The notes beneath the pieces were generated by a model. The model did not search any database. It saw only the letters and a list, made by a program, of their open reading frames with translations, and had not been told where the DNA came from. DNA of 64,000 bases from Myxococcota bacterium (GTDB taxonomy: Bacteria > Myxococcota_A > UBA796 > UBA2385), in the NCBI GenBank assembly GCA_044344255.1, contig JBIJDH010000022.1:76044-140043 (forward strand), read 5' to 3'. Both the position numbers and the translations under genes were made by a program. Below, piece by piece: positions 43,249 through 64,000 of this stretch; position 1 is the first letter of the stretch, and every line of letters begins with the position of its first letter.

Positions 43249-44595
43249 TCAGGCCAGCATCGCCTCGACGAGGCCACCCTTGAGGCTCGGGTCACCGAAA
43301 CGCTCGATCGGGGCGCCGTCGGCCTCGCGGTGCCCTGTGGCCGTGAGCAGGGTGGCGAGGAGGCGGTCGTGGGTGACACCGCCCGCGTCCACGTACTCGC
43401 CGGTCCGGAGGGTGCCTTCACCGGCGCCGGCGATCACCCAGGGCAACTGATCGTAGCGGTGGGAGCCCGTCGCCACGTCGCTCACGAAGACGGCGACAGC
43501 CGCGTCTATCACACCGTTCTCGGTGAGCCGGTCGAGCAGATAGGCGAAGACATCCAGGTGGAGTCGATTGACGTCGGCGTGCATCTCCGGGGTGGAGGAA
43601 TAAGGCCCCAGGTCACCCGCGTTGACCAGCCCGTGGGTGACCTCGTGATAGGCCGGCAGCGTGAAGCCGCCGACGGTGTATCGACAGCGGTCTATCCGGT
43701 CACCGATCTGGAGCGTGGCCGCGCGGGCCTGCCCGCAATTGAGCACGAGGGCGATGAGGTCACAGTGGAGGCGCGCGACGTCGAGGGAGACGCTGTCTTC
43801 GGCGCTCTGGCCGACATGATCGGCCAGGGCCGCCTCCCGCTCGGCGGTCAAGGTGCCGCAGAGCCCCTCGAAGTCTCGCACGCTGTCGGTGTGCTGCTCG
43901 AGGCGAGTGACGTCGGCGGCGGACAGGCGCGTGTCCCGTTGGAGGTCGTGGAGCTGGTCGAGCACGAGGTCGTTGACCGACCCCCGCAGGGCCTCCCCCA
44001 CGCCCCCGCCGAGCATGCGGCGGTAGACCGTCCAAGGATCGCTGTCGGCGCCCCGGAGCTGCCCGGGGCCCCGGTACGAGAGCACCTCCTCGCCGTTGTT
44101 GTCGCGGCGGCCGGCGTAGAGCGTCAGCGGCTCCCCGCCGTTGACGTCGGACTGACGGGCGATCCAATTATCAATCGACTCCCCCATGGCGTAGGTCATC
44201 AAGGTCTCGGTCAGCGGGCCGCAGCGCGCGCCGGTGAGGAGCTGATTGCCGCCGCCCGCGTGCTGATCGCTCGTCGCCTCGAAGGGATACTGGGTGCCGC
44301 GGACCAGCAGGAGGCGCTCGGCGTGAGCGGCGAGCCTGGACACGACCCGATCGGCGTTGGTGTCCGCCAGGGTGCTCCGGCTGAGGCGCCCGAGCGAGCG
44401 CGGCCAGAACCGCTCCGGCGCGTCGCCGTCCTGCTGGGCGACCCCAGAGGCGGCGCGGAGGACGACCAGGGGCGAGGCGGTCGAGGCGGGGCCCCGAGGG
44501 AGCCGACCGCAGCCGGCGAGGGAAGACAAGAAAGGAATGGGCACCGCGAGCCCGGAGGCGGCCGTCAAGAACTGGCGTCGGGTGAAGGGGGCCAT
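43249..44595 (-). CDS. DUF1552-family protein with Tat-like signal
   Basis: MAPFTRRQFL...PFLSSL, ESIDNWIA, RLEQHTDSVRDFE, LIALVLNCG..RAATLQ, HEVTH, H.YDQLPWVIAG and HDRLLATLL. GGAG RBS. Confidence 0.85.
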   Translation of the reverse strand: MAPFTRRQFLTAASGLAVPIPFLSSLAGCGRLPRGPASTASPLVVLRAASGVAQQDGDAPERFWPRSLGRLSRSTLADTNADRVVSRLAAHAERLLLVRGTQYPFEATSDQHAGGGNQLLTGARCGPLTETLMTYAMGESIDNWIARQSDVNGGEPLTLYAGRRDNNGEEVLSYRGPGQLRGADSDPWTVYRRMLGGGVGEALRGSVNDLVLDQLHDLQRDTRLSAADVTRLEQHTDSVRDFEGLCGTLTAEREAALADHVGQSAEDSVSLDVARLHCDLIALVLNCGQARAATLQIGDRIDRCRYTVGGFTLPAYHEVTHGLVNAGDLGPYSSTPEMHADVNRLHLDVFAYLLDRLTENGVIDAAVAVFVSDVATGSHRYDQLPWVIAGAGEGTLRTGEYVDAGGVTHDRLLATLLTATGHREADGAPIERFGDPSLKGGLVEAMLA

Positions 44596-44643
44596 GCCGG
44601 AGCTCCTCCGTTCGGATAGCCCACAGCCAGGCCAAGGTCCATC

Positions 44644-46236
44644 ATGCTCCTCCTGCTGCTGCTGTCCTGCACACCCCCGCCGGCGGACACCGCGCCCGGA
44701 CATGCCTATCGACTGACCCACCGGCAATGGGAGAGCACGGTGGTCGACCTGCTCGGCCTGTCTGAGCCCAGCGGCCTGTCCGAGACCTTCGTGAGCGACC
44801 CCTCGGTGTCCACCTTCGATACGGACCCCTCCTCCCTCGCCGTGCCCCCGGTGCTGTGGTTGCAGTACCAGCTCGCGGCGGAGGCGCTGGCCGTCCGGGT
44901 GGTCGAGGAGGAGGGCCCCTACGCGGTCGTCGTCCCCGCCGGCCTCCGCCCCGACGGCCCGGCGTACACCCGCGCCGAGCGGGACGCCTGGCTGCTCGAC
45001 TTCGGCGGCCGCGCCTTCCGCCGCCCCCTCGACGGTGAGGAGCTGATGCAGCTCGGACGGCTCTTTGACGCCGGCGCCAGCGTGTTCGCCTCGGGGGATC
45101 CCTTCGTGGACGGTGTGCGGGCCGCGGTCACCGGCACCCTCCAGGCCCCGGGCTTCCTCTACCGCACCGAGGGCCTGCAGCCGGGGGGCGAGCCGGGGGA
45201 GCTCTCGCCCGAGGAGCTCGCCTCGCGGCTCTCCTATGCGCTGTGGAACACCATGCCCGACGCCGAGCTGCTCGCCGCGGCCGAGGCCGACGGGCTCGGC
45301 CCCGAGACCCTGCGGGCTCAGGCGGAGCGCCTGCTCGACGACCCGCGGGGGCACGCCGCGGTGGCCGACCTCCACCGCCAGCTCCTGCACATCGACAGCT
45401 ACGCCCAGATCGTGCAGTCGAACACCACCGTCCTCGACGGCGGGGGCCACGGAGACCCGGGCGGTCCTCCCAGCCCCGAGGTGATGCAGGCCGAGGTCTA
45501 CGCCTTCGTCGACGACCTCTTCTACACCGAGGGCGCCCTGCGCGACCTCCTGACGAGCCCCGACACCTTCGCCACCGGCGAGCTGGCGGCGGTCTATGGC
45601 GTCGAGGGAGTCGAGGGCCCCGAGCTCCAGCCCGTCACGCTCGACCCCACCCAGCGCGCGGGCCTGCTCACCCTGTCGGGCTTCCTCGCCTGGCAGGCCA
45701 ACAGCAGCGAGCCCAACCTGATCGAGCGCGGCTACTTCATCAACGATGCGCTGCTCTGCGCCGAGGTGCCGCCGCCGCCGCCCGGCGCGACCCCGCTCCC
45801 CACCGACGCCGATGCGGAGACCCTGCGCGAGCGCGTCGAGGCCCACACATCCGGCTGCGGCGGGAGCTGCCACAACGCGCTCATCAACCCCGTCGGCTTC
45901 GCGCTCGGCCGCTATGACAAGGACGGCCGGTACGCGGAGCAGGAGGGGCGCGGCGAGGCGGCGACGCCCATCGACGCGAGCGGGAGCTACACCTTCGCCG
46001 ACGGCACCTTCACCTTTGACGGCGCCGTCGAGCTCGCCGAGATCATGGCGGACCGCGAGGAGGTGCACCGCTGCTACATGGGCCACCTCACCGGCTACCT
46101 CACCGCGCGGCCGGTGGCCGAGGTGGACGGCGCCCTCCTCGACGCGCTGACCGCGAGCTCACAGGCCGATCGGCCCCTCCGCTCCCTCGTCCTCGACATC
46201 GTCACCGATCCGAGCTTCCGCAGGGTCCGCCCCTGA
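44644..46236 (+). CDS. DUF1587/1595/1592/1588/1585 multidomain protein
   Basis: RLTHRQWESTVVDLLG, RAFRRPL, ELASRLSYALWNTMPD, QRAGLLT, IERG, CGGSCH..INPVGFAL and IDASG. Confidence 0.88.
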   Translation: MLLLLLLSCTPPPADTAPGHAYRLTHRQWESTVVDLLGLSEPSGLSETFVSDPSVSTFDTDPSSLAVPPVLWLQYQLAAEALAVRVVEEEGPYAVVVPAGLRPDGPAYTRAERDAWLLDFGGRAFRRPLDGEELMQLGRLFDAGASVFASGDPFVDGVRAAVTGTLQAPGFLYRTEGLQPGGEPGELSPEELASRLSYALWNTMPDAELLAAAEADGLGPETLRAQAERLLDDPRGHAAVADLHRQLLHIDSYAQIVQSNTTVLDGGGHGDPGGPPSPEVMQAEVYAFVDDLFYTEGALRDLLTSPDTFATGELAAVYGVEGVEGPELQPVTLDPTQRAGLLTLSGFLAWQANSSEPNLIERGYFINDALLCAEVPPPPPGATPLPTDADAETLRERVEAHTSGCGGSCHNALINPVGFALGRYDKDGRYAEQEGRGEAATPIDASGSYTFADGTFTFDGAVELAEIMADREEVHRCYMGHLTGYLTARPVAEVDGALLDALTASSQADRPLRSLVLDIVTDPSFRRVRP

Positions 46237-48947: not shown

Positions 48948-50771
48948 CTAAAGAGCGCGGCGGCTCCGCGCAAGCGAGGCCCCCGGCGCTCGACGGCGCC
49001 CGGTCAGGATCAACAAGAGGCCGAGGCCAGCGGCCCCGAGGCGCCCCGACCCCGCGGCCGCGCAGCTACAGCCCGGCTGCTTGCCGATGTCACCGTTGTC
49101 GATGACGATGATCGGCGAGGGCCCACCGCCGGAGCCGCCGTCTGACCCACCATCGGCGGCGCCGTCCGACCCGCCCGAGTCGGCGGAGGGCTCCGCGCTG
49201 TCGTCCTCCCCGCCCGAGTCCGGCTCCGGGGCGACCTCGTCGATCTCGCCGTCACAGTCATCGTCCACGCCGTTCCCGAGCAGCTCTTCGGGGCCGGTGC
49301 ACTCCGCGGCGCAGCTCGTACAGTCCTCGGAGGGGTCACAGATGCCATTGCCGCACCACTCCCCCACCCGGCTGAGGCGGATCGAGTCGACGGCGATGTG
49401 CTGGCTGGAGGCGACGGTGCTCGACTCATTGTCGGTCACCTTGAGGAACTGTCCACCGCCCGCGGCGAAGTGGTAGGTACCGAGCGCCTGCCAGCCGTCG
49501 ACCGCGCTCTGGTCGATGGTCACGTCGCTCATCACGCCGTCTGCGTAGACGTGGTAGTCTGTGCCCGCGTGGACGTTGAAGCCCCCGCCCGTGTAGACCT
49601 CGACGAGGTAGTCCCCCTCCTCCTCAAGGTGGAGCTTCCACCAGGCCCAATTGTCGGGGTCGTCGCTCTTGAAGGCGTTCGTCCAGTAGAGGTGGCCGCC
49701 GTCGCCGGTGGTCTCGTCGCGCCAGTATTCGTCGGGGCCGAACTTCTCGAAGCAGTCGCCCTCCTCGTCGAGGCTGCCCCCAGCGGCCGGGATGAGCGAG
49801 CAGGCCCCGGCGCTCGGGCAGTGGCCAGGCCAGGCGGCGCGCCCGGAGCCCGAGCCTGCCCAGACCCCCCAGTGGTTGGCCACCGAGCGGGCCCCGCCGC
49901 CGCTGTTGTTGCCGTCGTAGTCGTTGACGTAGCCGTCCCCGTCCACCCACATCTGCGAGGAGCCGCCACCGTCCAGGTTGAAGGCTACCCAGGCCCCGAG
50001 CTGCCCCATCAGATCGGCGAGCTCGCTGCCGTACATCCCCGAAGAGTCGCTGGTGCGACCGTCTACGACGGCGAGGATGAGAGTGCCCTTGTCAGCGGTC
50101 AGGCCCATCGCGGTGCGGGGGTGGCGGTCGCGCATGTCGGAGCGATCGGGGAAGCAGGTCGAGGCCTCGGGATCGGAGCAGGTCTCGACAAAGCCCTCCA
50201 CCACGAGCTCGGGGAAGCCGCTCACGAGCGCGAGCGTGCCCACCGGCGGGTCGGGGTGCTTGTCGGTGATCTCCCAGCCGCCGCTCACGCCATAGTCGCC
50301 GAGGTTGTTCTTGACGTGGGCGCTGTGGGTGAACTCTACCCAGTCGTCGCCGAAGGCGATCCAGCCGTAGTGGCTGTAGTACCACTCCCCACTGTAGCTG
50401 CTGTCATCGCCGGTCTGGATGGAGGGCCAGGCGTTTCCGTCCCCCACCGCGTTCCCATAGACACGGAGCGGGCTCGTCTTGTAGAAGTCGCCGTTCGTGG
50501 CCACCTGGACGCCGGCGTCAGAGGCCCAGGAGCCCGTGCTCTGCGTGCTGTCGGAGGCCTCGGTGGCCGTCACATGCACATACGAAGTGCACAGATCGAC
50601 GAGGGTGACGAAGGTGTTGGTGGTGGGGCTGCTCGTCCGGTACTCTCGAAGGGTGATCCCGGGGTAGGGCGAGCTCTCCGACTCGAGGCTCAGCGTGAGC
50701 GCCGCGGCCGGGCCACCCCAGGCGACGAGGCCGAGCAGCACAGCGCCCCGACTGGCAGAGGCGAGGCGCAT
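48948..50771 (-). CDS. Phosphodiester glycosidase (NAGPA/DUF2233)-family secreted protein with CBM-like domain and MYXO-CTERM-like tail
   Basis: ATNGDFY, RHPRTAMG, VVDGR, NLDGGGSS, TIDQ..GWQALGTYHF...AVDSIRL, GNGVDDDCDGEIDE and GCSCA + TM + RRR. Confidence 0.85.
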   Translation of the reverse strand: MRLASASRGAVLLGLVAWGGPAAALTLSLESESSPYPGITLREYRTSSPTTNTFVTLVDLCTSYVHVTATEASDSTQSTGSWASDAGVQVATNGDFYKTSPLRVYGNAVGDGNAWPSIQTGDDSSYSGEWYYSHYGWIAFGDDWVEFTHSAHVKNNLGDYGVSGGWEITDKHPDPPVGTLALVSGFPELVVEGFVETCSDPEASTCFPDRSDMRDRHPRTAMGLTADKGTLILAVVDGRTSDSSGMYGSELADLMGQLGAWVAFNLDGGGSSQMWVDGDGYVNDYDGNNSGGGARSVANHWGVWAGSGSGRAAWPGHCPSAGACSLIPAAGGSLDEEGDCFEKFGPDEYWRDETTGDGGHLYWTNAFKSDDPDNWAWWKLHLEEEGDYLVEVYTGGGFNVHAGTDYHVYADGVMSDVTIDQSAVDGWQALGTYHFAAGGGQFLKVTDNESSTVASSQHIAVDSIRLSRVGEWCGNGICDPSEDCTSCAAECTGPEELLGNGVDDDCDGEIDEVAPEPDSGGEDDSAEPSADSGGSDGAADGGSDGGSGGGPSPIIVIDNGDIGKQPGCSCAAAGSGRLGAAGLGLLLILTGRRRAPGASLARSRRAL

Positions 50772-50920
50772 CGGCGCGAAGCGCGGGCGGCTACGGGCGT
50801 CGAGACCGTGGGATCCAGGCATGGGACCTCTTCCCAGCGGCGTTAACCCGCCCGCGCCGGCGGGGGTCCCTGTTCGTCGGGGGCCGAGCGCGTTAGCCGG
50901 CACACCCCCCGGAGGCACCG

Positions 50921-51271
50921 ATGAAGGCCGAGCTGATCAAGCTCCTGCAGAAGGGCCAGACCTTCTCCGATCTCAAGTCCGCGCTGGACGGCAAGTCCAT
51001 CGGCGGCGGCAAGGTCCGCATCACCGTCGACAACCGGGCCCTGCCCTACCTCGCTCACGTCGTCGCCGGCTGGGTCGACGGCCCCCCGGGCTCGAACGTC
51101 GCCGCGGTGCTCTCGGGCGCGGACCCTGCGGGCGGCAAGTGGCGCCGCTTCTCGCTCTCCTGCAAGGGCCCCTACCGCTACGAGATCGACGTCTTCCCGA
51201 CGCCCTTCACCGACGCCGCGCAGCCGCTCTCCCCCGGCATCCCCCCTGCGGGCCGCACCGCGGCGCACTGA
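50921..51271 (+). CDS. Hypothetical protein, 116 aa
   Basis: GGAGG RBS and host-like codon usage; no family recognised. Confidence 0.7.
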   Translation: MKAELIKLLQKGQTFSDLKSALDGKSIGGGKVRITVDNRALPYLAHVVAGWVDGPPGSNVAAVLSGADPAGGKWRRFSLSCKGPYRYEIDVFPTPFTDAAQPLSPGIPPAGRTAAH

Positions 51272-51375
51272 GCCGCCCAGCCCGGAGCGGCGCCCCCGGC
51301 TCGAAGCGGCCGGCATATTCGGGGCCGCTCATGGGCTCATGCTACACTACCCCCCTCGTCCCGGAAGGAGTCCTC

Positions 51376-52320
51376 GTGGCACTCAGCCTCCTGCGCCTGC
51401 TCAGCCTCGTCTCCCTGGCCACGCTGGCCCTCCCCGCCTTCGCGGGTGCCACCGCCTCTGACTTCAAGAAGGAGACGAAGAAGGGCGCCAACTACTGGAA
51501 CGCCCAGGCCGCCATCGACGGCGACATGAAGACCTGCTGGATGGTGCCCGGGGAGAGCCAGAACAAGGGCGAGTGGATCATGCTCGAGGCCCCCAAGTCC
51601 AAGATCGACAAGATCGGCATGGTGGTGGGCTGGGGCAAGGATGACGCCATCTTCAAGGACTACGCCCGCGTCAAGACGGTCAACGTCATCGCCTACAAGT
51701 ACGACGACGACAACAACATGGTCGAGGCCGCCCGTCAGGTCGCCACCTTCGAAGACAAGCCGGGGATGCAGGTCGTCGACATCGAAGACATGCAGATCGG
51801 TGACGAGAACTTCGGCGGCAAGGTCAAGATCGAGGTGACGGACTTCTACGAGGGCAAGGACTTCCCGAACCTCGCCGTGAGCGAGGTCCTGATGGTCCTC
51901 ACCGAGTTCGACGCCAAGCCCGTGGTCAAGAGCGTCTCCTCCGAGGACGCCGGCCACGACGGCGGCATGATGATCGACCTCAGCCCCAAGACCTTCTGGT
52001 CTGGTGACGCCGCCGGGGCCGCCCTCACCTTCGAGGCCTCCGGCTTCTCGCTCGCCCGCGTGGGCATCACGCCGGGGCCGAAGGAGTACGCCCGCCCGAA
52101 GAAGGTGAAGGTCACCGCCAACGAGCGCAGCGTCGAGGCCGAGCTCCCCGACAAGGCGGGGGCCCAGTGGGTCGAGATCCCCGCCGTCGTCGGCTACACC
52201 GGCAGCGCCTGGGGCATGATCAAGGTCGAGATCCTCGAGACGTACCCCGGCACCAAGTTCCCCACGAAGGTCGCGATCAACGAGCTCGACGCCAAGGCCA
52301 CGGCGATGGACGGCATCTGA
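51376..52320 (+). CDS. Secreted protein with two discoidin/galactose-binding-like domains
   Basis: AAGGAG RBS and signal peptide; AAIDGDMKTCW...GEWI...KIEVTDFYEG..LAVSEV, repeated as MIDLSPKTFW...KVEILETYPG..VAINEL. Confidence 0.75.
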   Translation: MALSLLRLLSLVSLATLALPAFAGATASDFKKETKKGANYWNAQAAIDGDMKTCWMVPGESQNKGEWIMLEAPKSKIDKIGMVVGWGKDDAIFKDYARVKTVNVIAYKYDDDNNMVEAARQVATFEDKPGMQVVDIEDMQIGDENFGGKVKIEVTDFYEGKDFPNLAVSEVLMVLTEFDAKPVVKSVSSEDAGHDGGMMIDLSPKTFWSGDAAGAALTFEASGFSLARVGITPGPKEYARPKKVKVTANERSVEAELPDKAGAQWVEIPAVVGYTGSAWGMIKVEILETYPGTKFPTKVAINELDAKATAMDGI

Positions 52321-54412: not shown

Positions 54413-55081
54413 TCAGAGCCAGGCGTAGGCCGCGCGGAGGGCCTCCTTGCCGTCGGCCTCGAGGAGTGCGCCGTGGGCGAGCACCACCTTGTCGATGTCC
54501 CACGCGAGCATCCGGTCGACCTCCCGCCGCGCGACCCGCCGATCGCGCACCATCAGCGGCTCCATCCAGCCGAGGCCGGGCCCGCGGTTGCCCATCAGCC
54601 CAGCGACGAAGCGGGTGGAGGCGTAGTCGTGCGTCGAGAGGTTGAGCAGCGCGTCGGCGCAGATGAAGGTGCGGCTCTTCGGGTGGTAGAAGTCGACCTC
54701 GTCCTCCCGCCGCGCCGAGAAGTAGACCTGCTGCAGATCGGCCGCCCAGCGTTCGTGCGGCCTGTCGCCGAGCACGAGGTGAAAGGCGAGGTCGGGCCTC
54801 TTCTTCGCGAGCCCCGGGCAGCCGCCGTAGACGGCGTCCGGGTAGGCCCGCAGCCAGTCGCCGACGTGCAGGTGGTGGAAGCGGCTCGGCGCCACCACCG
54901 CCCGCACCGGGCCGAGCGTGTCGATCGCCGCGCGCAGCTCGGGGTCGAGGGCCACGGGCGAGTGGATGAAGAGCCCGCCGTCGGCGAGGCGGACGACGGT
55001 CATGCGCGTGCCGGTCTCGAGCCCAAAGAAGCGGACGCGGCGGGCGACGACCCAGAGGTCTTCGGCGAAGGGGGTGAGCAT
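54413..55081 (-). CDS. DUF4336-family (metallo-beta-lactamase-like fold) protein
   Basis: TRMTVVRLADGGLFIHSP, VAPSRFHHL, FYHPKSRTFICAD and VLAHG. Confidence 0.85.
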   Translation of the reverse strand: MLTPFAEDLWVVARRVRFFGLETGTRMTVVRLADGGLFIHSPVALDPELRAAIDTLGPVRAVVAPSRFHHLHVGDWLRAYPDAVYGGCPGLAKKRPDLAFHLVLGDRPHERWAADLQQVYFSARREDEVDFYHPKSRTFICADALLNLSTHDYASTRFVAGLMGNRGPGLGWMEPLMVRDRRVARREVDRMLAWDIDKVVLAHGALLEADGKEALRAAYAWL

Positions 55082-55231: not shown

Positions 55232-58200
55232 ATGTCCCGCCCTGTAGAGCCCATCGCCATCATCGGCCTCGCCTGCCGTTACCCGGGCGCGCCCGACGCC
55301 CGAGCGCTCTGGGAGAACATCCTGGCTCGACGCCAGCAGTTCCGGCAGATGCCCGACTGCCGGCTGCCGATCGCCGACTACCACAGCCTCGACCGGGCGG
55401 TGGAGGATGTGACCTACGGCAAGCGGGCCGCGGTCATCGATGGTTGGAGCTTCGATCCGGCCGCCCATCGGGTGCCCCGCTCCTCCTTTGAGTCCACCGA
55501 TGTGGTGCATTGGCTCACCCTCGACATCGCCAAACAGGCGGTGGAGAGCGCCGGCCTCAACCTCGACGGCATGGACCGCGACCGCATCGGCATGGTCCTC
55601 GGCAACACGCTCACCGGAGAGGAGACCCGCGCCAACACCATGCGCCTCCGCTGGCCCACGCTCCGGCGGGCGCTCCGCCACGCCGCGCTCGCCACCGGCC
55701 TCGACCCCGACGAGGGCCCTGAGCTGGAGCTGGCGCTCGAACAGACCTGGAAGAGCATCTTCCCGCGGATCACCGAGGACTCCCTGGCCGGCGGCCTCGC
55801 CAACACCATCGCCGGGCGGGTGTGCAACGTCCTCGATCTGCACGGCGGCGGCTGGGTGGTGGACGGAGCCTGCTCCTCCTCGCTGCTCGCCGTAGCCACC
55901 GCCGCCGAGCTCATCGCCTCCGGCCAGCTCGACATCGCGCTCTGCGGCGGGGTCGACGTCAGTCTCGACCCATTCGAGCTCGTGGGCTTCGCCAAGGCCA
56001 CCGCGCTCTCGGCCGGCGACATGAACGTCTATGACAAGCGCGGCAAGGGCTTCATCCCGGGCGAGGGCTGCGGCGTGGTGGTGCTCCAGCGCCTCGACCA
56101 CGCGCGCCGTGACGGACATCCGGTGCTGGCCCAGCTGCGCGGCTGGGGCATCTCCTCGGACGGGAAGGGGGGCATCACCGCGCCCTCTGCCCGCGGTCAG
56201 GCCCTCGCCCTCCGTCGGGCCTACGAGCGGGCCGGCTACAGCCCGCACAGCCTCGACTTCGTCGAGGGCCATGGCACCGGCACCGCGGTGGGCGACCGCG
56301 TCGAGCTCGAGGGCATCTCGGAGGCCGTCGACGCCTTCGGGGAGAAGCGGAGCCGGAGCATCGGCGTCACCTCCTTCAAGTCGATCGTGGGCCACACCAA
56401 GGCGGCGGCGGGCATCGGCGGCTTCATCAAGGCGGTGCTCGCGGTGAACCAGCGGGTGGTCCCTCCCACCGCCGGCTGTGTCGAGCCCCACACGGTCTTC
56501 GGCGAGCGGGCCCGGGCGCTCTACCCGGTGCTGCGCGGCGAGCAGCGCCCCCTCACGGACCGCCTGCGGGCCGGCGTGTCGGCGATGGGCTTCGGCGGCA
56601 TCAATTCCCACGTGACCTTGGAGAGCGGCGACGCGCCCGACCCCGCCTTCGCCCTCGGCCGCGACCCCTCCACCCTCAAGCCCTGGGAGTCGGAGGTCTT
56701 CCCGATAGCGGCGCCGAGCCGGGAGGCCCTGCTCGCCGCAGCTCAGGCCCTCTCCCTGGACGCCGCCGGCATCTCCGTCGCCGAGCTCGGCGACCTCGCC
56801 ATCCGCACCGCCGCCCGGCTCGGGCAGGGGCCCTGCCGCGCCGCGGTCGTCGCCTCCAGCCCCGATGAGCTGGTGGCGGCCCTCGGGGCCCTCCTGGTGC
56901 GGCTCCAGAGCGGTGAGCCGCTGGAGATCGATCGAAAGGTGGGCCTCTTCGCCGGGGCCAGAGCGACCGGCGAGGTCGATGCTGCGCCCCGCGTGGGCTT
57001 CCTCTTCCCCGGTCAGGGCTCCCAGCTCCTCGGCATGGCCGGCGGCCTCCTCGACCGCTACGCCTGGGCCCGGGAGCTGGCCGCGGAGGCCGATGGCTGG
57101 GTCGCGGGTTTCCCCGCCTTTCAGGCGGAGCCACTCTCCGCCTTCATGCAGCGTCCCACCTGGCGGGACCCCGCGGGTGAGTCCCAGGCCGAGTGGAAGG
57201 CGGCCCTCACCCGCACCGAGGTGGCCCAGCCGGCGATCGCGCTGGCATCGCTGCTCTGGTTCGAGCTGCTCCGTCGTGTGGGCCTGTCCCCCGCCGTGAC
57301 CGGCGGCCACAGCCTGGGCGAGCTCATGGCCCTCTGCGCCTCGGGGGCCTTCGACGCCGCCACGCTCCTGCAGATCGCGGCCCTGCGCGGCCAGGCCATG
57401 GCCGCACCCGCTGCTGACGCGGGCACGATGGCGGCCCTCGTCTGCGACCCCGCGCTCGCGCTCTCGCTCTTGGAGGGGACGGCCGCGGTGCTGGCCAACC
57501 GAAACTCCCCCGAACAGTGTGTGGTCTCCGGCACCCTCGCGGACGTGGAGCGGGTGGTGGAGCGGGCGGCCGCCGCGGGGCTCCGCGCTCGGCGCCTCAC
57601 CGTGTCGAACGCCTTTCACTCCCCCCTGGTCGCCGCCGCCGCCGCCCAGGTGGCCGCCGACCCGCGTGTCCCCCGCCGGGCCGCGGGGCTTACAACCACA
57701 ACCCTCTCCTGCACCGATGGGGCGCCGTTCTCCGCCGATGCCGACCTCCGGGCCCACCTCGGTCGTCAGATCACGGCCCCGGTCGACTTCATCCGCCTCG
57801 CCGCCGCGATGGCCGAGTCGGCCGACCTCCTCATCGAGGTGGGCCCCGGTCGGGTGCTCTCCGGGCTCGTGGAGCGCTGCGCGGTGGGCCGCGCTTGCCT
57901 GCCCGCGGAGGGACAGCCTGGGCGAGACCGCGACGCCGCGCTGCTCTTCGCGGAGGCCTTCACCCGCGGCTGCGACCTCTCCTGGTCTGCCCTCTACGAG
58001 GGGCGGTTCGCGCGGCCCTTCGTCCCCGCCCGCGAGCTGCACTTCTACGAGAACCCCTGCGAGCGGCCCTTCGCCCGGGTGGTGCTGCCCGAGCTTCAGG
58101 CCCTCCCCCGCGCGCTGCGCCTCCGCCCGGGGGGCCGGGCCTCGGGGCAGCTCGGCGAGCTCGTCACCCTGCTCAGCACCGCGCTCTCGGCCACCCACGT

Positions 58201-61200
58201 CGCGATCTACGTCTCGCAGGCCTCCTCCCTCGATCTGCTGTCGGCCCTCCCCGAGCGCAGCCGCCGGAGCCTCCCCTCCGGGCAGGGCATCGTGGCCCAG
58301 GTGCTCGCCGCTGGCCTGATGCGCGCCGTCCCCCTGCTCGCCGCGGAGCCCGGCTTTCGCCCCGAGGTGGACGGCTGGCCCGCCACCCTGCTCCAGGGCG
58401 CGCTCTACCTTCCGGTGCCCCTGGAGGCCGGCACCGCGGTGGTGATGGTGGCCCGAAGCGGCGCCGAGCCCTTCACCGAGGCCGACCAGCGCACGCTCTC
58501 CGCCCTCGCCGGCTCGGCCCGGCCCTTCATCGGACAGGCCCACCTCGAGCTCCAGGTCGAGAACGCCCACGCGCTGGAGGCGAAGCTGCGCGGCTGGGCG
58601 ACCGAGATCGAGAGGGACCAGCCGGTCTCCACCCTCATCGAGAGCTGGATCGAGGCCGCGGTCTCGTCCTATGGCACCGAGGCGGGCTCCCTCTTCCTCT
58701 ACGATCGACGCCGGGAGGAGCTCGTGAGCGTGGCGGCGGTGGCGCCCGGCGAAAAGGGCAGCCTCCGCGCCGTGACGTTACGCTTCCCCGCCAACCGGGG
58801 CATCGCCGGCCATGTGCTCACGACCGGCGAAGATGTACACATCGACGATGCGTACGGTGACCCCCGCTTCAACCCCGCCGTAGACAAACAGACGGGCTTT
58901 CGCACCCGCACCATTGACTGTATGGCCCTCGTCGACGATGCCGGGCAGGCCATCGGCGTGCTCCAGCTCCTCAACCGCGACGACCGGCGCTGGGGCCCGG
59001 CCGAGCGGGACGGCCTCCGACGCCTCGCCACGCAGCTCTCGGCCCTCCTCCGCCTCTCGAAGCTCGTGGAGGGCGTGCAGGGCAGCGTCGAGGCCCCCGC
59101 CGCAGCCCCCGCCGAGGGCGCGGCCTCTGCCGGTAGCGCCGCCTCTGCCGCGGGTGCTCCTCGGGCCCTGCTCTATGGCCTCGTCACCCGGTTGACCGGC
59201 TTCGCACTCGACTCCCTGCACGGCGGGCTCCGTCTCCTCGACGACCTGAACCTCGACTCCATCAAAGCCGGCTCGCTGCTCGCCGAGCTCGGGAAGGGGC
59301 TCGGGCTCCCCCCCGGCAAGCTCGAGGGGCTCGCGAATGGCACGCTGGACGAGATCCTCGGCCGGGTGGGCGGCTCCGCCACCGACGCGGCGGCCCTGGA
59401 GGCGAAGCTCTATGCCCTCGTAGAGGAGCGCACCGGCTTCGCCCGCTCCACCCTGCACGGCGGGCTGCGCCTCCTCGACGACCTGAACCTCGACTCCATC
59501 AAGGCGGGCTCGCTGCTCGCCGAGCTCTCGAAGGCCGCCGGCCTCTCTGCCGCCCCCGAGGGCCTCGCCAACGCCTCGCTCTCCGACATCCTGGCCCGGC
59601 TCCAGCCCTCGGCGGCAGCCGAGGTCCACATTCAGGACCCCCTGCCGCCGGCCTGGGTGCGGGACTTCACCGTCTCGTGGTCCCCCGCGCCCCTCCTCCC
59701 CCCTCCGCTTCCTCCGATGGGGGAGGCCGAGAAGGGCGATGGCGCCGGCCTCCTCGTGGTGAGCGACTCGGACGACGCCCTCCGCGTCGCCCTCCAGGCC
59801 GCACTGCCGGCCGCCCGCTTCTCCGATGACGAGACGAGCGGGATCAACGAGGAGGGCGGCCCGGTTCGCCACCTCGTGGTCCTCGCCCCCACGGGACCAC
59901 CGGATGTGGAGCGGGATGTGCGTCGGCTCGCGGTCACCCACCGCCTCCGCGAGGGGGGCCTCGACGGGGCCCTCGCCGCCATCACCTTCGTGCAGCGGGG
60001 TGATGGGCGGATGGGCCAGCAGGAGCCCGAAGGAGGGCACCACCTGGGCCTCCGCGCCTTCGCCGCCTCCGTCAGCCAGGACCGCCCCGGCCTCATCGTC
60101 CGCGCCCTCGACCTCCACCGTCACCTCTCCGATGAGGCTGCCCTCCAGGCCCTCGGCGGCGAGCTCCGCCTCCCTCGCTCCGGGGCCGCCGGGGTCGACG
60201 CCCTGGGCGCTCGCCTCGAGCCCGCCCTCCACACCCTCTCGGCGAAGGAGGCCCGCGGCGCCGTGGCGCTCCCGGGCCCGGGGGAGCTCATCCTCGTGAC
60301 CGGCGGCGCCAAGGGCATCACCGCGGAGTGCGCCCTGGCCCTCGGCCGCGAGACCGGCGCCCGCTTCGTGCTCATCGGCAGCTCCGCCGCTGAGCCCGGT
60401 GGCGAGGTGGAGGGCACGCTCCGCCGCTTCGCCGAGGCCGGCCTGCTGGCCGAGTACCGCCGCTGCGACGTCGGCGACGCCGGCGCGGTCACCGCCCTCG
60501 TCGCCGCGGTGCAAGCAGAGCGGGGGCCCATCGTGGGCTTCATCCATGGGGCCGGCCTCAACAAGCCCCGGCCGGCCGAGCAGGTGCCCGCCGAGGCGGC
60601 GCTCCGCGAGATCCGCCCGAAGCTCCTGGGCGCCACCCACTTCCTGGCAGCGCTGGAGTCGGCCCCGCCCCGCCTGATCATCGGCCTCACCTCGATCATC
60701 GGCGTGGTCGGCATGCCGGGAAATGCCTGGTACGCCTTCTCGAACGAGCGCCTCGACCTCGCCCTCCGCGACTTCGCCGCCCGCCACCCGGGCACCCACG
60801 CCGTGAGTCACGCCTGGTCGGTGTGGGATGAAGTGGGCATGGGCGTGAAGCTCGGCAGCGTCGATCACCTCGCGCAGAAGGGCATCTCCGCCATCCCGGT
60901 CGAGGAGGGCCTCCGGCACTTCCTCCGGTGGGTGAAGCGCAGCCCGCCGGACACCCAGGTGGTGATGACGAGCCGCCTCGGCGGGCTTGGGGCGGCGGGC
61001 GGGTCCCTGCCCGATCCCGGTCGATACACCGGCAGCCCCCGGGCCTTCACCCCCGGCGTGGAGTGGGTGAGCCGGGTCCGCCTGTCGGCTGACACGGACC
61101 GCTTCGTCTACGATCACGACTTCAAGGGCTCCCTGCTCTTCCCCACCGTCTACGGCCTCGAGGCCATGGGACAGGCCGTGCTCGCCGTCACCGGCCGCCC

Positions 61201-63661
61201 GGCCTTCGGCGACACCCGCATCGAGGACATCGAGCTGTCGCGCCCCATCGTGGTCCACCCCACCGAAGGCGTGGAGATCGAGCTCCGCGCCCTCGTGCGA
61301 GAGGCCGAAGAGGACGGCTCCACCGTCATCGTCGAGGCCGCTATCCACGTCTCGACGAGCGGCTTCTCTGCGGCCCACTTCAGCGCCCGCTTCGTGCTCG
61401 ACGCCCCAGCCCCGGCCTCCGAGCCCGCCCCCGCCGAGACCCGCGCCCTGGACCTCCTCCCGGCAGACGACCTCTACTCGGGCCTCCTCTTCCAGGGCCC
61501 CTGTTTCCAGCGCATCCGTCGGGTCTTGTCCCTCGACCAGCGCGCCGTCACCTACGAGACGGAGTGGCGGGACAGCACCCTGTCGGCCCCCGAGGGCTTC
61601 TCGGAGGCGGCCCGGCGGCCCCTCGTGCTCGGCGACCCTTACCACCGCGACACGCTGCTCCAGGCGGCCCAGCTCGTCGTCACCCCCGAGGTGGCGCTGC
61701 CTGTGCGCATCGACTGCATCGAGCTCGCCGCCCCTTCGCGCCGCGCCCCCGGCCCCGCGCTGGCCCGCTCGTGCCACCTCGGCCGCGAGGGGGCGGTGCT
61801 GCTCGGTGAGGTGGAGGCCTGGGACGCCGATGGACAGCTCGTGGAGCGCATCCTCGGCTACCGGCTGCGGGTGCTCGAGCGCGACGAGCGCCTGCCAGAC
61901 GTGGCCCGCCTGCTCAACCCCGAAGCGGGCGACACGGTCGAGCTCCAGTCCCGCCTGGACGGGCTCGCTGCCAGCTTCGGGCGCGTGGCCCCCCGCGTGG
62001 CGCTGCTCCATCGACGGGGCCTGCACGGCATCTCCCGAGAGGCGCGCCGCCTCGTCACCGGGCCCCTGCTCGGCCTCGCCGCCGAGCGCGCCGGCCTCTC
62101 CGGGGAGCCGCGCTGGGAGGACAGCGGTCGCCCCATCCTCTCCGGGGCGGAGGGCGCGGGCATCTCTCTCGCCCATGACGAGGCCACCTGCCTCGCCGTC
62201 GCGGGGAGCGGGCCCCAGGGCTGCGACCTCGTCCAGGCGGTGACGCACCCGGCCGAGCACTGGGGGCGGATGCTCTCCCGAAACGCAGGCGTCTACGGTC
62301 GCCTGCGGGTCACCGAAGGGGTGGACCGCGCCGGCCGATTGATCTGGGCCGCCCAGGAGGCCGCGATGAAGGCGCTCGGCACCGACGCCGCCCGCCTCGA
62401 CCGGGAGCGGGGGCGCGGTGGGGGCTGGATCTTCGAGGCCCATGCCCCCGATGGCAGCGGCAGCGTCGATGTTCTCGCGTTGGTCGTGCGCCTCGCCCGA
62501 GGTGGAGATCGGGTCGTGGCGGCGGTGGTCCCCCGCCCCGCTCCGTCGGTGTCGGCTCCGCGGGAGTCGGCCCCGGTGGCCCCGCCGCCCGCCGCTCCGA
62601 TCGCGCCGCGACCCACACCCTCGACGCCGGGCCTGCCCGCCGCCGACGAGGCGCGCGATGGACACGGCATGCAGATGCGTGCGGACGGCCCCGAGGGTCA
62701 GCTCTGCTTCCACCAGCCCTCGATGGTGGTCTTCAAGGAGGCCTCCGAGCCGAGCGGGGTGCTGCGCCCGAGCCACCTCTTCCGTCGAATGGGGGAGCTC
62801 CGCGAGCTGGCCGCCCGCCCGGTGCTGGACAATTGGGTCGCGGACTTCCGCACCGGTCGATGGGGGGCGGTGACCAATTACAGCCGGCTCCACCTGCTCG
62901 GGACCGCCGAGACAGGGGACACGCTGGAGGGGCGGGTCTGGTCCTCCGGCCTGTCGGGCCCGATGGACGCGACGATCGAGCTGCGCTTCGCCTGGGACCG
63001 CGTCTCGGCCTCGGGCGAGCGGGGCCCGGTGGCGGAGGGGTCGATGGCGACCACCTGGGTGGAGATCACGGGCCACGGGGAGGCCAAGGTGGCGCCCAAC
63101 CCACCCTACTTCCAGGCCTTCGCCGAGCGTATCGGCCCGCCGACCGCCGCCCCTGTCGCGCCCATGCCCGAGCCCCCCGCCTTCGAGCGCGGACCGCTCG
63201 TCTACGAGGCCGCGCGGCGTCCGGGGCGGCAGCCGATTCACCGGAGCCGTTTCCAGACGAGCCGCGAGCACTCGAATATCGTGGGCAATATCTACTTCGC
63301 CCACTACCCGACCTGGCAGGGAGAGGCCGTGGACCAGATGCTCAACCGCCTCGACCCCTCCACCGCTCGGGACCGCTCGGGCGAGCTCCGACTCCAGCGC
63401 GCGGGGGTGGAGCATTACCGCGAGGCGATGCCCTTCGATGAGATCGAGGTGGCCGTGCATGTAGACGAGCTCCACGCACAGGGCCTCAAGCTCACCGTCG
63501 AGCTCTTCCGCGCGACCGGGGGGGGCCCAGGGGAGGGTGGCTCCGAGAAGCTGGCGGTCGGCCAGGTGGAAGGGGTCTGGTTCGCCCCCGAGGGAGCGGA
63601 GTGGCGACCCGCTCCATTCCCCCCGCAGCTCGCGGCCGGGCTTCGACGCGGGATGGCCTGA
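55232..63661 (+). CDS. Enediyne-PKSE-like iterative type I PKS: KS-AT-GAF-GAF-ACP-ACP-KR-DH-PPTase-TE-TE (2809 aa)
   Basis: GGAG RBS. KS: DGACSSS, EGHGTGT, GHTKAA and PKSE-typical GNTLTGE..RAN.MRLRWP and EDSLAGGLANTIAGRVCN. AT: GHSLG, AFHS. Two LNLDSIK ACPs (Ser codons 59258 and 59495). KR: GGAKGIT, NAWYAFSNE. DH: HDFKGSLLFP, GDPYHRD. PPTase: SLAH, GCD, WAAQEAAMK. Hot-dog TE: SNIVGNIYFAHY. Confidence 0.92.
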   Translation: MSRPVEPIAIIGLACRYPGAPDARALWENILARRQQFRQMPDCRLPIADYHSLDRAVEDVTYGKRAAVIDGWSFDPAAHRVPRSSFESTDVVHWLTLDIAKQAVESAGLNLDGMDRDRIGMVLGNTLTGEETRANTMRLRWPTLRRALRHAALATGLDPDEGPELELALEQTWKSIFPRITEDSLAGGLANTIAGRVCNVLDLHGGGWVVDGACSSSLLAVATAAELIASGQLDIALCGGVDVSLDPFELVGFAKATALSAGDMNVYDKRGKGFIPGEGCGVVVLQRLDHARRDGHPVLAQLRGWGISSDGKGGITAPSARGQALALRRAYERAGYSPHSLDFVEGHGTGTAVGDRVELEGISEAVDAFGEKRSRSIGVTSFKSIVGHTKAAAGIGGFIKAVLAVNQRVVPPTAGCVEPHTVFGERARALYPVLRGEQRPLTDRLRAGVSAMGFGGINSHVTLESGDAPDPAFALGRDPSTLKPWESEVFPIAAPSREALLAAAQALSLDAAGISVAELGDLAIRTAARLGQGPCRAAVVASSPDELVAALGALLVRLQSGEPLEIDRKVGLFAGARATGEVDAAPRVGFLFPGQGSQLLGMAGGLLDRYAWARELAAEADGWVAGFPAFQAEPLSAFMQRPTWRDPAGESQAEWKAALTRTEVAQPAIALASLLWFELLRRVGLSPAVTGGHSLGELMALCASGAFDAATLLQIAALRGQAMAAPAADAGTMAALVCDPALALSLLEGTAAVLANRNSPEQCVVSGTLADVERVVERAAAAGLRARRLTVSNAFHSPLVAAAAAQVAADPRVPRRAAGLTTTTLSCTDGAPFSADADLRAHLGRQITAPVDFIRLAAAMAESADLLIEVGPGRVLSGLVERCAVGRACLPAEGQPGRDRDAALLFAEAFTRGCDLSWSALYEGRFARPFVPARELHFYENPCERPFARVVLPELQALPRALRLRPGGRASGQLGELVTLLSTALSATHVAIYVSQASSLDLLSALPERSRRSLPSGQGIVAQVLAAGLMRAVPLLAAEPGFRPEVDGWPATLLQGALYLPVPLEAGTAVVMVARSGAEPFTEADQRTLSALAGSARPFIGQAHLELQVENAHALEAKLRGWATEIERDQPVSTLIESWIEAAVSSYGTEAGSLFLYDRRREELVSVAAVAPGEKGSLRAVTLRFPANRGIAGHVLTTGEDVHIDDAYGDPRFNPAVDKQTGFRTRTIDCMALVDDAGQAIGVLQLLNRDDRRWGPAERDGLRRLATQLSALLRLSKLVEGVQGSVEAPAAAPAEGAASAGSAASAAGAPRALLYGLVTRLTGFALDSLHGGLRLLDDLNLDSIKAGSLLAELGKGLGLPPGKLEGLANGTLDEILGRVGGSATDAAALEAKLYALVEERTGFARSTLHGGLRLLDDLNLDSIKAGSLLAELSKAAGLSAAPEGLANASLSDILARLQPSAAAEVHIQDPLPPAWVRDFTVSWSPAPLLPPPLPPMGEAEKGDGAGLLVVSDSDDALRVALQAALPAARFSDDETSGINEEGGPVRHLVVLAPTGPPDVERDVRRLAVTHRLREGGLDGALAAITFVQRGDGRMGQQEPEGGHHLGLRAFAASVSQDRPGLIVRALDLHRHLSDEAALQALGGELRLPRSGAAGVDALGARLEPALHTLSAKEARGAVALPGPGELILVTGGAKGITAECALALGRETGARFVLIGSSAAEPGGEVEGTLRRFAEAGLLAEYRRCDVGDAGAVTALVAAVQAERGPIVGFIHGAGLNKPRPAEQVPAEAALREIRPKLLGATHFLAALESAPPRLIIGLTSIIGVVGMPGNAWYAFSNERLDLALRDFAARHPGTHAVSHAWSVWDEVGMGVKLGSVDHLAQKGISAIPVEEGLRHFLRWVKRSPPDTQVVMTSRLGGLGAAGGSLPDPGRYTGSPRAFTPGVEWVSRVRLSADTDRFVYDHDFKGSLLFPTVYGLEAMGQAVLAVTGRPAFGDTRIEDIELSRPIVVHPTEGVEIELRALVREAEEDGSTVIVEAAIHVSTSGFSAAHFSARFVLDAPAPASEPAPAETRALDLLPADDLYSGLLFQGPCFQRIRRVLSLDQRAVTYETEWRDSTLSAPEGFSEAARRPLVLGDPYHRDTLLQAAQLVVTPEVALPVRIDCIELAAPSRRAPGPALARSCHLGREGAVLLGEVEAWDADGQLVERILGYRLRVLERDERLPDVARLLNPEAGDTVELQSRLDGLAASFGRVAPRVALLHRRGLHGISREARRLVTGPLLGLAAERAGLSGEPRWEDSGRPILSGAEGAGISLAHDEATCLAVAGSGPQGCDLVQAVTHPAEHWGRMLSRNAGVYGRLRVTEGVDRAGRLIWAAQEAAMKALGTDAARLDRERGRGGGWIFEAHAPDGSGSVDVLALVVRLARGGDRVVAAVVPRPAPSVSAPRESAPVAPPPAAPIAPRPTPSTPGLPAADEARDGHGMQMRADGPEGQLCFHQPSMVVFKEASEPSGVLRPSHLFRRMGELRELAARPVLDNWVADFRTGRWGAVTNYSRLHLLGTAETGDTLEGRVWSSGLSGPMDATIELRFAWDRVSASGERGPVAEGSMATTWVEITGHGEAKVAPNPPYFQAFAERIGPPTAAPVAPMPEPPAFERGPLVYEAARRPGRQPIHRSRFQTSREHSNIVGNIYFAHYPTWQGEAVDQMLNRLDPSTARDRSGELRLQRAGVEHYREAMPFDEIEVAVHVDELHAQGLKLTVELFRATGGGPGEGGSEKLAVGQVEGVWFAPEGAEWRPAPFPPQLAAGLRRGMA

Positions 63662-63692: not shown

Positions 63693-63998
63693 ACGGCGGA
63701 GGGGGACTGTTCGCGTCCCCCGAGACGACCATGCTTCCAGCCTCCCCCATCATATGGGGGAGGTGCCGTCGCATCGACGGCGGAGGGGGACTGTTCGCGA
63801 ACCCCAAGACGACCCTGGTTTCAGCCTCCCCCATCATATGGGGGAGGTGCCGTCGCATCGACGGCGGAGGGGGACTGTTCGCGACCCCCGAGAGTGCGGG
63901 AGAGTGGCCTGTTCGCGAAGCCAACAGGAGGGCATACGCCCCCATTCGACTCGTTCATCGGCTTGGCATCGCGAGCAGTCCCCCTCCGGTGCCGATGC
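63693..63998. repeat. 84-bp-period palindromic repeat cluster (REP/BIME-like) with an inverted copy
   Basis: ACGGCGGAGGGGGACTGTTCGCG at 63693, 63777 and 63861; hairpin CCTCCCCCAT-CAT-ATGGGGGAGG at 63741 and 63825; degenerate inverted copy at 63970-63998. Confidence 0.88.
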
Positions 63999-64000
63999 GG

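Follow-up and report, generated by a model that had tools for sequence, protein, structure and literature searches.

Why should an iterative polyketide synthase (PKS) carry a pair of sensory GAF domains in the middle of its chain? The question is raised by one gene in a 64,000-nt stretch of DNA from a Myxococcota bacterium (contig JBIJDH010000022.1 of assembly GCA_044344255.1), here called the window. A plus-strand open reading frame (ORF) at 55232-63661, with its likely start at the ATG at 55232 and its stop at 63661, encodes 2,809 amino acids, in which a local scan gave the order ketosynthase (KS), acyltransferase (AT), GAF, GAF, two acyl carrier proteins (ACPs), ketoreductase (KR), dehydratase (DH), a phosphopantetheinyl transferase (PPTase)-like region and two hot-dog domains. 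Pfam recognized KS, AT, GAF, ACP, KR, DH and 4HBT_2 hot-dog domains, and the enzyme was confirmed as an iterative type I PKS that resembles the enediyne PKSs (PKSE) and carries a tandem GAF insert. Judged from sequence, the second GAF is a member of a PKS-specific subfamily that recurs in PKSE-like enzymes and in two unrelated PKSs starting with a fatty acyl-AMP ligase (FAAL-PKSs).

The insert comprises about 330 residues, between the end of the AT (approximately residue 900-946) and the start of the first ACP (approximately residue 1310). The original prediction, made from the letters of the window, had placed two in-frame GAF domains between AT and ACP, the first degenerate and the second well preserved, with the NKFDE motif altered to NR..W...ER. 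All of its quoted motifs were found in frame, namely GQGIVAQV (58280), PFTEADQRTLSALA (58469), SLFLYD (58688), FPANRGIAGHVLTTGE (58784), DAYGD...CMAL (58847) and IGVLQLLNR (58952). The first domain (GAF-A) lacks the pocket motifs that the second (GAF-B) keeps, and the altered motif reads N1248, R1249, W1254, E1258 and R1259. The G+C content at third codon positions over the insert (0.87-0.98) is similar to that of the remainder of the gene. Catalytic motifs are present in the KS, the AT, both ACPs, the KR and the DH; the catalytic roles of the motif residues in the KS, AT, KR and DH are presumed. The PPTase-like region at 61979-62521 has no Pfam match, and we take its GxD and WxxxEAxxK-type motifs, together with its position, to mark a PPTase. 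The two ACPs, the C-terminal double hot-dog thioesterase and the GAF subfamily common to the FAAL-PKSs go beyond what had been predicted. The features of the gene and of the contig end are as follows.

55232-63661, plus strand: the whole PKS (type I, iterative, PKSE-like), including the tandem GAFs and the fused double hot-dog thioesterase (Pfam, local scan)
55247-56641, plus strand: KS domain, with C214, H347 and H388 present (PF00109, PF02801, motif positions)
56984-58069, plus strand: AT domain (GHSLG S694, H796) and post-AT segment with a conserved NPCE motif at its end (PF00698)
58133-58522, plus strand: GAF-A, GAF fold retained and cyclic-nucleotide pocket motifs gone (profiles, model, alignment)
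58523-58612, plus strand: helix linking GAF-A to GAF-B (AlphaFold2 helix, model residues 133-161)
58613-59092, plus strand: GAF-B, a PKS-specific GAF of cyclic-nucleotide type with C-terminal output helix (PF01590, PF13185, PF13492, PDB matches, fold, clade)
58916-58918, plus strand: signature Asp1229, equivalent to PDE5A Leu267 (gap-free alignment to PDE5A)
58973-59008, plus strand: altered NKFDE motif (alignment)
59159-59605, plus strand: two ACP domains, Ser1343 and Ser1422 (Pfam, motifs)
60281-60841, plus strand: KR catalytic domain, Y1834 and N1838 (PF08659)
61049-61906, plus strand: DH domain, H1962 and D2140 (PF21089, PF14765)
61979-62521, plus strand: PPTase-like region (motifs as above; position matches the PKSE order in PMC9992847)
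62699-63631, plus strand: fused double hot-dog (PF13279; PDB 2xem, E 5e-9, 4i4j and 2w3x)
63693-63999, no strand assigned: 84-nt palindromic repeats resembling repetitive extragenic palindromes, at the contig end (repeat analysis)

Both halves of the insert have the GAF fold, as profile and structure comparisons agree. In the piece 58100-59200, GAF-B matched PF01590 with an E value of 3.4e-16 and 60.4 bits (cut-off 22.4), and the GAF_2 and GAF_3 profiles each matched two stretches, of which GAF-A is the second and weaker; in the orthologue P0009, PF01590 itself matches two stretches. An AlphaFold2 model of 58124-59107, built from a seven-row alignment, contains two GAF folds with a single long helix of 29 residues between them (mean predicted local distance difference test score, pLDDT, 81; predicted template modelling score 0.58). 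In this model GAF-A (model residues 1-141) superposes on a methionine-R-sulfoxide reductase of GAF fold (4mmn) with Z 16.8 and a root-mean-square deviation (rmsd) of 2.5 over 136 residues, and GAF-B (model residues 150-316) on PDE10A GAF-B (2zmf) with Z 21.7 and rmsd 2.3. The relative placement of the two domains is unreliable, at an rmsd of 10-24 Å to solved tandems, and GAF-A modelled by itself from a single sequence gave a poor result (pLDDT 60).

A kinship with the cyclic-nucleotide-binding tandem GAFs of CyaB cyclases and phosphodiesterases (PDEs), proposed earlier from the tandem pattern, is upheld by the best PDB sequence matches of the insert, which were the CyaB2 tandem GAFs (1ykd, E 3e-24) followed by PDE2A, PDE10A and PDE5A; a search of the ESM Atlas returned generic GAF clusters only. 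The likeness to CyaB2 and to PDE2A, PDE5A and PDE10A extends from sequence and fold to the long helix between the GAFs and the pocket-side residues of GAF-B. Unlike these proteins, the PKS GAF-B has N-R-W-E-R for NKFDE and Asp for Leu267, the PKS GAF-A is without pocket motifs, and the module is internal with an ACP as its neighbour, rather than a cyclase, PAS or phosphodiesterase domain. The closest non-PKS proteins to the insert profile are metagenomic GAF-GAF-PAS class III adenylyl cyclases (P0166-P0176), which lie outside the PKS clade and differ in that both of their GAFs retain the Leu and NKFDE. Ligand control through a fused GAF is known from PtsP-type enzymes, and PtsP (enzyme I-Ntr), whose GAFs 3trc and 3ci6 are among the fold matches, likewise bears a GAF in cis on an enzyme. 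It differs in having a single N-terminal GAF, at approximately 15-17% identity, and in not being a megasynthase.

Whether GAF-B could still bind a ligand depends on two faces of the domain. PMC11977230 places V230, I266, Q283 and I285 in the cGMP site of PDE5, with C268 and V281 near it. In a gap-free alignment of GAF-B to full-length PDE5A (D1229 = Leu267, Q1245 = Q283, N1248/R1249 = N286/K287), the pocket-side I266, C268, V281 and Q283 are kept as I1228, C1230, V1243 and Q1245, and V230 and I285 are replaced by Ala and Leu. Other pocket-lining features, namely the GIAG helix start, the D-x-x-T/N motif, a Thr and a strand-1 Ser/Thr, are also present, and D-x-x-T-G-F-x-T is kept in seven of nine PKS GAF-B clusters. 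GAF-A provides an internal control, with both Thr of the pocket motif kept in none of the four rows compared. The contacts of CyaB2 GAF-B given in PMC4411481 are R291, T293, I308, D356 and N359. In these columns the window reads A, S, A, D and T, and P0058, P0011 and P0221 read R, S/T, V, D and T.

The back face has changed in all PKS copies, with Leu replaced by Asp, Lys by Arg, Phe mostly by Trp (W1254 for PDE5 F295 in the window, by profile alignment) and Glu mostly by Arg or His. Because the pocket-side residues are kept and NKFDE, Leu267 and Phe295 are changed, GAF-B is, as read from these alignments, a domain with a conserved pocket and a rebuilt output face, in which a salt bridge might form between the signature Asp and one of the new Arg residues. 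The weight of such changes can be gauged from PDE5, where L267 and F295 form a coupled pair away from the cGMP site (PMC11977230). There, L267A raised the half-maximal effective concentration (EC50) for cGMP about 5,800-fold in the isolated GAFa and from 73 to 181 nM, or about 2.5-fold, in the full-length enzyme; the same source cites work in which PDE2 GAFb no longer bound cGMP once NKFDE residues were mutated to alanine.

The Asp at the PDE5 Leu267 column sets the PKS domains apart. It is present in all 14 PKS GAF-B records (nine clusters at 90%) and in none of 595 non-PKS GAF domains with a residue in that column (169 proteins), and it is absent from all nine other GAF domains found in the genome of the window (G000). 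The residue was first noticed in the initial protein sets and then tested on separately gathered proteins, where it was absent from all 385 non-PKS GAF domains (96 proteins) and present in the one new PKS. In a tree with the 29 nearest non-PKS domains, the nine PKS GAF-B domains lie on one side of a branch with a support of 99 in the Shimodaira-Hasegawa-like approximate likelihood ratio test, and the clade remained at 98/99 after five signature columns were dropped. Eight GAF-A rows also cluster (99), in a quick tree with long branches. The Asp is a single-motif marker for mining the family.

Outside the PKSE-like group, the same GAF type lies between ACP and KS in P0058 (2,417 amino acids; FAAL-ACP-GAF-GAF-KS-AT-ACP-C, on one contig) and occurs as a single GAF in P0221 (3,690 amino acids; FAAL-ACP-GAF-KS-AT-DH-ER-KR-ACP-sulfotransferase-reductase, on two contigs). 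These two proteins are 41-44% identical and thus may share one origin. In both PKS families, PKSE-like and FAAL-PKS, the module adjoins an ACP. A search with P0058 (60 matches) found no other protein with exactly this architecture and missed the PKSE-type proteins. The subfamily counts are lower bounds, since word-based searches miss family members.

Among PKSE-like enzymes, the insert was found in orthologues at 29-52% identity: in G034 and G332 (other family, same order), in the more distant P0009, P0011 and P0012, and in three further protein clusters at 47-51% identity. It is rare, occurring in three of 401 genomes sampled from the phylum. A species collection gave two insert loci besides that of the window, from 17 pattern matches, and a scan of metagenome contigs with the GAF alignment gave 30 pattern matches, none confirmed. 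A KS-AT match at E < 1e-150 occurs in six of 154 genomes of the order, with the insert in G000 and G332 and none in G025, G403, G445 and G431; the G034 contig has no KS and lies outside these six. The insert was absent from the ordinary PKSE-like enzymes compared, as the original prediction had it for canonical PKSE.

A KR tree of 70 PKSE-like proteins placed seven GAF bearers and four GAF-less enzymes in one 11-member branch, supported at 98 (KR) and 96 (AT) in a 21-protein subset in which a GAF-only clade was rejected (approximately unbiased test, p-AU 2.6e-6). Both GAFs are missing in P0265/P0017, P0057, P0035 and P0043. One gain of the module followed by several losses is probably the simplest reading of these trees; change counts cannot separate gain from loss. 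P0265/P0017 are near identical to the GAF-bearing P0002 through the KS and most of the AT, then fall to 62% and lack the GAF pair and one ACP, either through a module swap between paralogues or through a chimera in one of the two records, so they are weaker evidence of loss than P0057, P0035 and P0043. Where both resolve a group, the GAF-B and PKS trees agree. With four GAF-less enzymes nested among seven GAF-bearing ones the module is dispensable, as expected of a regulator and not of a core part. Mean identity among four orthologues was 83% for the KS, 62% for the AT, 50% for GAF-A, 63% for GAF-B and 69-71% for the ACPs. The ratio of non-synonymous to synonymous rates (dN/dS), by simple counting in one pair of same-genus genomes (L014 and L018), was 0.038 for GAF-B (two non-synonymous and 17 synonymous changes), 0.24 for GAF-A, 0.11 for both the connector and the AT, and 0.056 for the first ACP, which suggests strong purifying selection on GAF-B in that pair. 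The values for the window against G034 (GAF-A 0.98, GAF-B 0.53) are near saturation and were set aside.

These observations can be joined in one proposal, to which we give a probability of roughly one half: the enzyme would be a ligand-gated PKS, probably gated by cAMP or cGMP. An ancestor of this PKS lineage would have acquired a CyaB/PDE-type pair of GAFs, since kept as an accessory regulator in cis. In PDE2, PDE5 and PDE10 one GAF of the pair binds ligand, and here GAF-B would bind a small molecule, most likely cAMP or cGMP, while GAF-A and the long helix would form a stalk for dimerisation, placed on the two-fold axis of the dimeric KS-AT. When the pocket closes, the output helix of GAF-B would move with its rebuilt back face, and this shift would alter ACP access to AT and KS, so that polyketide output would track the level of the messenger. 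The enzyme itself would be an iterative PKSE-type polyene synthase that primes and releases itself through its fused PPTase-like region and hot-dog thioesterase. The presence of the same GAF type in unrelated PKSs suggests that a small-molecule signal acts as a direct switch on some assembly lines. A broader proposal, plausible at somewhat below even odds, is that a dedicated, transferable GAF family gates ACP shuttling through a second messenger (cAMP or cGMP) or another small signal in at least two unrelated PKS families, as a portable megasynthase switch with a rebuilt Asp-Arg-Trp face.

Several points weigh against gating by a cyclic nucleotide. NKFDE has become N-R-W-E-R in the window, with K changed to R in all nine and F kept in none of nine PKS GAF-B domains, and the hydrophobic Leu267-Phe295 pair that PDE GAFs need for binding is replaced by Asp1229 and Trp1254; GAF-B is therefore not to be filed as a proven cyclic-nucleotide-binding GAF. 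At the CyaB2 adenine contacts R291 and I308, the window and its three closest relatives have Ala; the Arg at the R291 column is also missing in cGMP-binding PDE2A. In P0009 and P0012 the pocket is eroded (D to E, Q to L), GAF-A is missing in P0012 and P0221, and the selection estimate comes from one genome pair. An Ala/Pro/Gly linker of approximately 25 residues between the GAF-B output helix and the first ACP would weaken mechanical coupling. Class III cyclase domains number 11, 14 and 11 in the three GAF-PKS genomes searched, and this is weak support because cyclases are common in such genomes.

The changes in NKFDE and in the Leu267/Phe295 pair in every PKS copy would equally suit a ligand-free scaffold, in which the dimerised GAF pair would be a stiff stalk that keeps the ACPs in position or on a tether, or that clamps together the two halves of the PKS dimer, with the rebuilt back face locking one state. 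Tandem GAFs of PDE and CyaB2 dimerise, a role named in the title of 1ykd; these solved tandem structures top the fold search, and the module always stands beside an ACP. However, GAF-B keeps its pocket and lid motifs over 40-45% identity where GAF-A has lost them, and many relatives manage without a stalk, at an NPCE-to-ACP distance of merely 59-90 residues, so we regard a scaffold as rather unlikely, though the main competitor. The strict link of the signature to PKSs and the departure from CyaB2 at the purine-contact positions in the subgroup of the window could instead mean that the Asp/Arg/Trp face is a new site, with the domain sensing a product, an acyl-CoA or a redox or nutrient cue, or docking a partner such as the halogenase encoded after the PKS in G034 and probably in G000. 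This we consider improbable, given that the phosphate- and ribose-side motifs of cyclic-nucleotide GAFs are the best kept, that the same halogenase family also stands beside GAF-less enzymes, and that the products of the FAAL-PKSs are different.

A fragment of a sensor, captured, tolerated in the flexible AT-ACP linker and now decaying as a neutral passenger, would account for the degenerate GAF-A, the recurrent whole or partial absence among close relatives and the rarity of the insert in the phylum. It is nonetheless very unlikely in view of the low dN/dS of both GAFs, the invariant signature across unrelated megasynthases and the agreement of the GAF-B tree with the PKS tree. A catalytic role on the ACP-bound chain comes to mind from the position in cis beside an ACP, the invariant Asp and the best structural match of GAF-A among the matches listed, the methionine-R-sulfoxide reductase. 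That match is only 15% identical, the Asp lies on the face opposite the pocket and GAF-B has no invariant Cys or His, which makes catalysis highly improbable. Misassembly, finally, was to be checked according to the original prediction. The genome is metagenome-assembled, and the gene ends 340 nt from the end of its contig (C48). Contigs of three other lake runs (X5, X6 and X7, those of four runs compared that are not marked as possible sources of the window) match 56780-58593, 57582-58693 and 58064-59340 without a differing letter and so bridge each junction of the insert, although no single piece spans the whole gene. At least half of the sampled words of the stretch occur in 20 of the 21 runs listed, from 19 lake or freshwater studies; four of the runs may be the source. 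With the same insert in orthologues from other genomes and data sets, an assembly chimera was rejected and is practically discounted.

Returning to the enzyme as a whole, its closest described counterparts are the PKSE. According to PMC9992847, PKSE have the order KS-AT-ACP-KR-DH-PPTase, PKSE with its thioesterase gives pentadecaheptaene, and the minimal cassette includes three more genes. The same order is found in the window enzyme as in the SgcE/SgcE10, DynE8/DynE7 and CalE8/CalE7 systems, from which it differs in the tandem GAF insert, the two ACPs and the fused thioesterase of double hot-dog form; two orthologues are named 'enediyne polyketide synthase' by a source. The three further cassette genes are, we assume, UnbU-like, ASPIC/UnbV and DUF1702. 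The earlier label 'PKSE' holds for the architecture and fails for this cassette, whose partners were not found in the three GAF-bearing genomes G000, G034 and G332 (95, 93 and 90% complete): DUF1702 was found in none of the three and was found in the control G025, UnbU-like was not found with the query used, and UnbV-like gave only matches of approximately 25% elsewhere in G000. An enediyne pathway for the GAF-bearing PKS was rejected on this ground, and the enzyme is probably a stand-alone (halo)polyene synthase. By comparison, all four GAF-less PKSE-like loci of the order have at least one UnbV/ASPIC, RnfD-like (UnbU) or DUF1702 neighbour, presumably enediyne cassette genes.

The most likely recipient of the PKS product is a neighbouring flavin halogenase, not an enediyne pathway. 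In G034 a flavin halogenase-like gene follows the PKS; its G000 counterpart (67% identity), which resembles tetracycline 7-halogenase and PltM, opens contig C75 and is followed by an RPE65-family carotenoid oxygenase. The start of C75 lies behind the same kind of repeat as the end of C48. The two ends share a 26-nt match inside the repeat, the first 27 nt of C75 differ, and no run contig compared showed the continuation. The 84-nt repeats probably broke the assembly between the PKS and the halogenase gene, and the halogenase and oxygenase on C75 (L035, 222-3452) probably continue the PKS operon. The product, at a fair guess, would be a halogenated or cleaved polyene serving as pigment, protectant or signal. 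G000 has a second halogenase paralogue on contig C51, and the palindromic repeats are copied across the genome, often at contig ends.

The cognate hot-dog thioesterase is present in fused and doubled form, and its second half matches DynE7, CalE7 and an ACP-polyene thioesterase, with the DynE7 and CalE7 thioesterases as homologues. This second half keeps N-x-x-G-N-x-Y but carries V-D in place of the R-E of DynE7; in the first half, R-E is kept in the matching helix in eight of nine relatives checked. If these residues have the catalytic roles that we presume, the active site of the double hot-dog may be split. The double fusion is common in this PKSE-like group, and in one member (P0135, 2,999 amino acids) a flavin amine-oxidoreductase domain is fused C-terminally behind the hot-dog.

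A GAF inside a PKS was not described in the literature searched; mention in a genome-mining supplement is possible, and most subscription papers lay outside the scope. One preprint with both 'GAF domain' and 'polyketide synthase' (bioRxiv 10.1101/2025.05.27.656397) is, in its accessible portion, unrelated to such an arrangement. The parts are known; what appears to be undescribed is their union and the fact that it recurs, as a single marked subfamily, in both PKS families. The known controls of PKS output are transcription, phosphopantetheinylation, precursor supply and, for some enzymes, phosphorylation. If confirmed, a sensor inside the assembly line would add a distinct layer of control to megasynthases, would couple specialised metabolism to second messengers on a time scale of seconds and could explain the silence of some expressed clusters. 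It would also offer engineers a natural ligand switch that has already moved between PKS types. Further, a lineage that keeps the pocket and has replaced Leu267 and Phe295, the coupled residues found critical in PDE5 by one study, is a natural test of GAF allostery. As polyenes of this kind can be read at 370 nm in E. coli (PMC9992847), a PKSE-type enzyme is easy to assay.

Other observations were made along the way. PKSE-like loci of uncultured relatives (L015/L016 on G025:C2, L043, L044 and L045) have UnbV/ASPIC, RnfD-like and DUF1702 neighbours and are candidate enediyne-type cassettes; L015/L016 and L045 also have a halogenase, and G025 carries another UnbU-like copy, plus two ABC1 kinases upstream. 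In the window, a DUF4336 gene at 54413-55081 on the minus strand diverges from the PKS gene over a 150-nt gap. A plus-strand gene at 50695-52320, whose true start is probably further downstream, has an F5/8-type C domain of the 'NAD glycohydrolase translocation' family (PF25302). Within 43249-46236, DUF1592/1588/1595/1587/1585 matches lie on the plus-strand ORF 44644-46236, and an HXXSHH (DUF1552) match lies on the overlapping minus-strand ORF 43249-46086.

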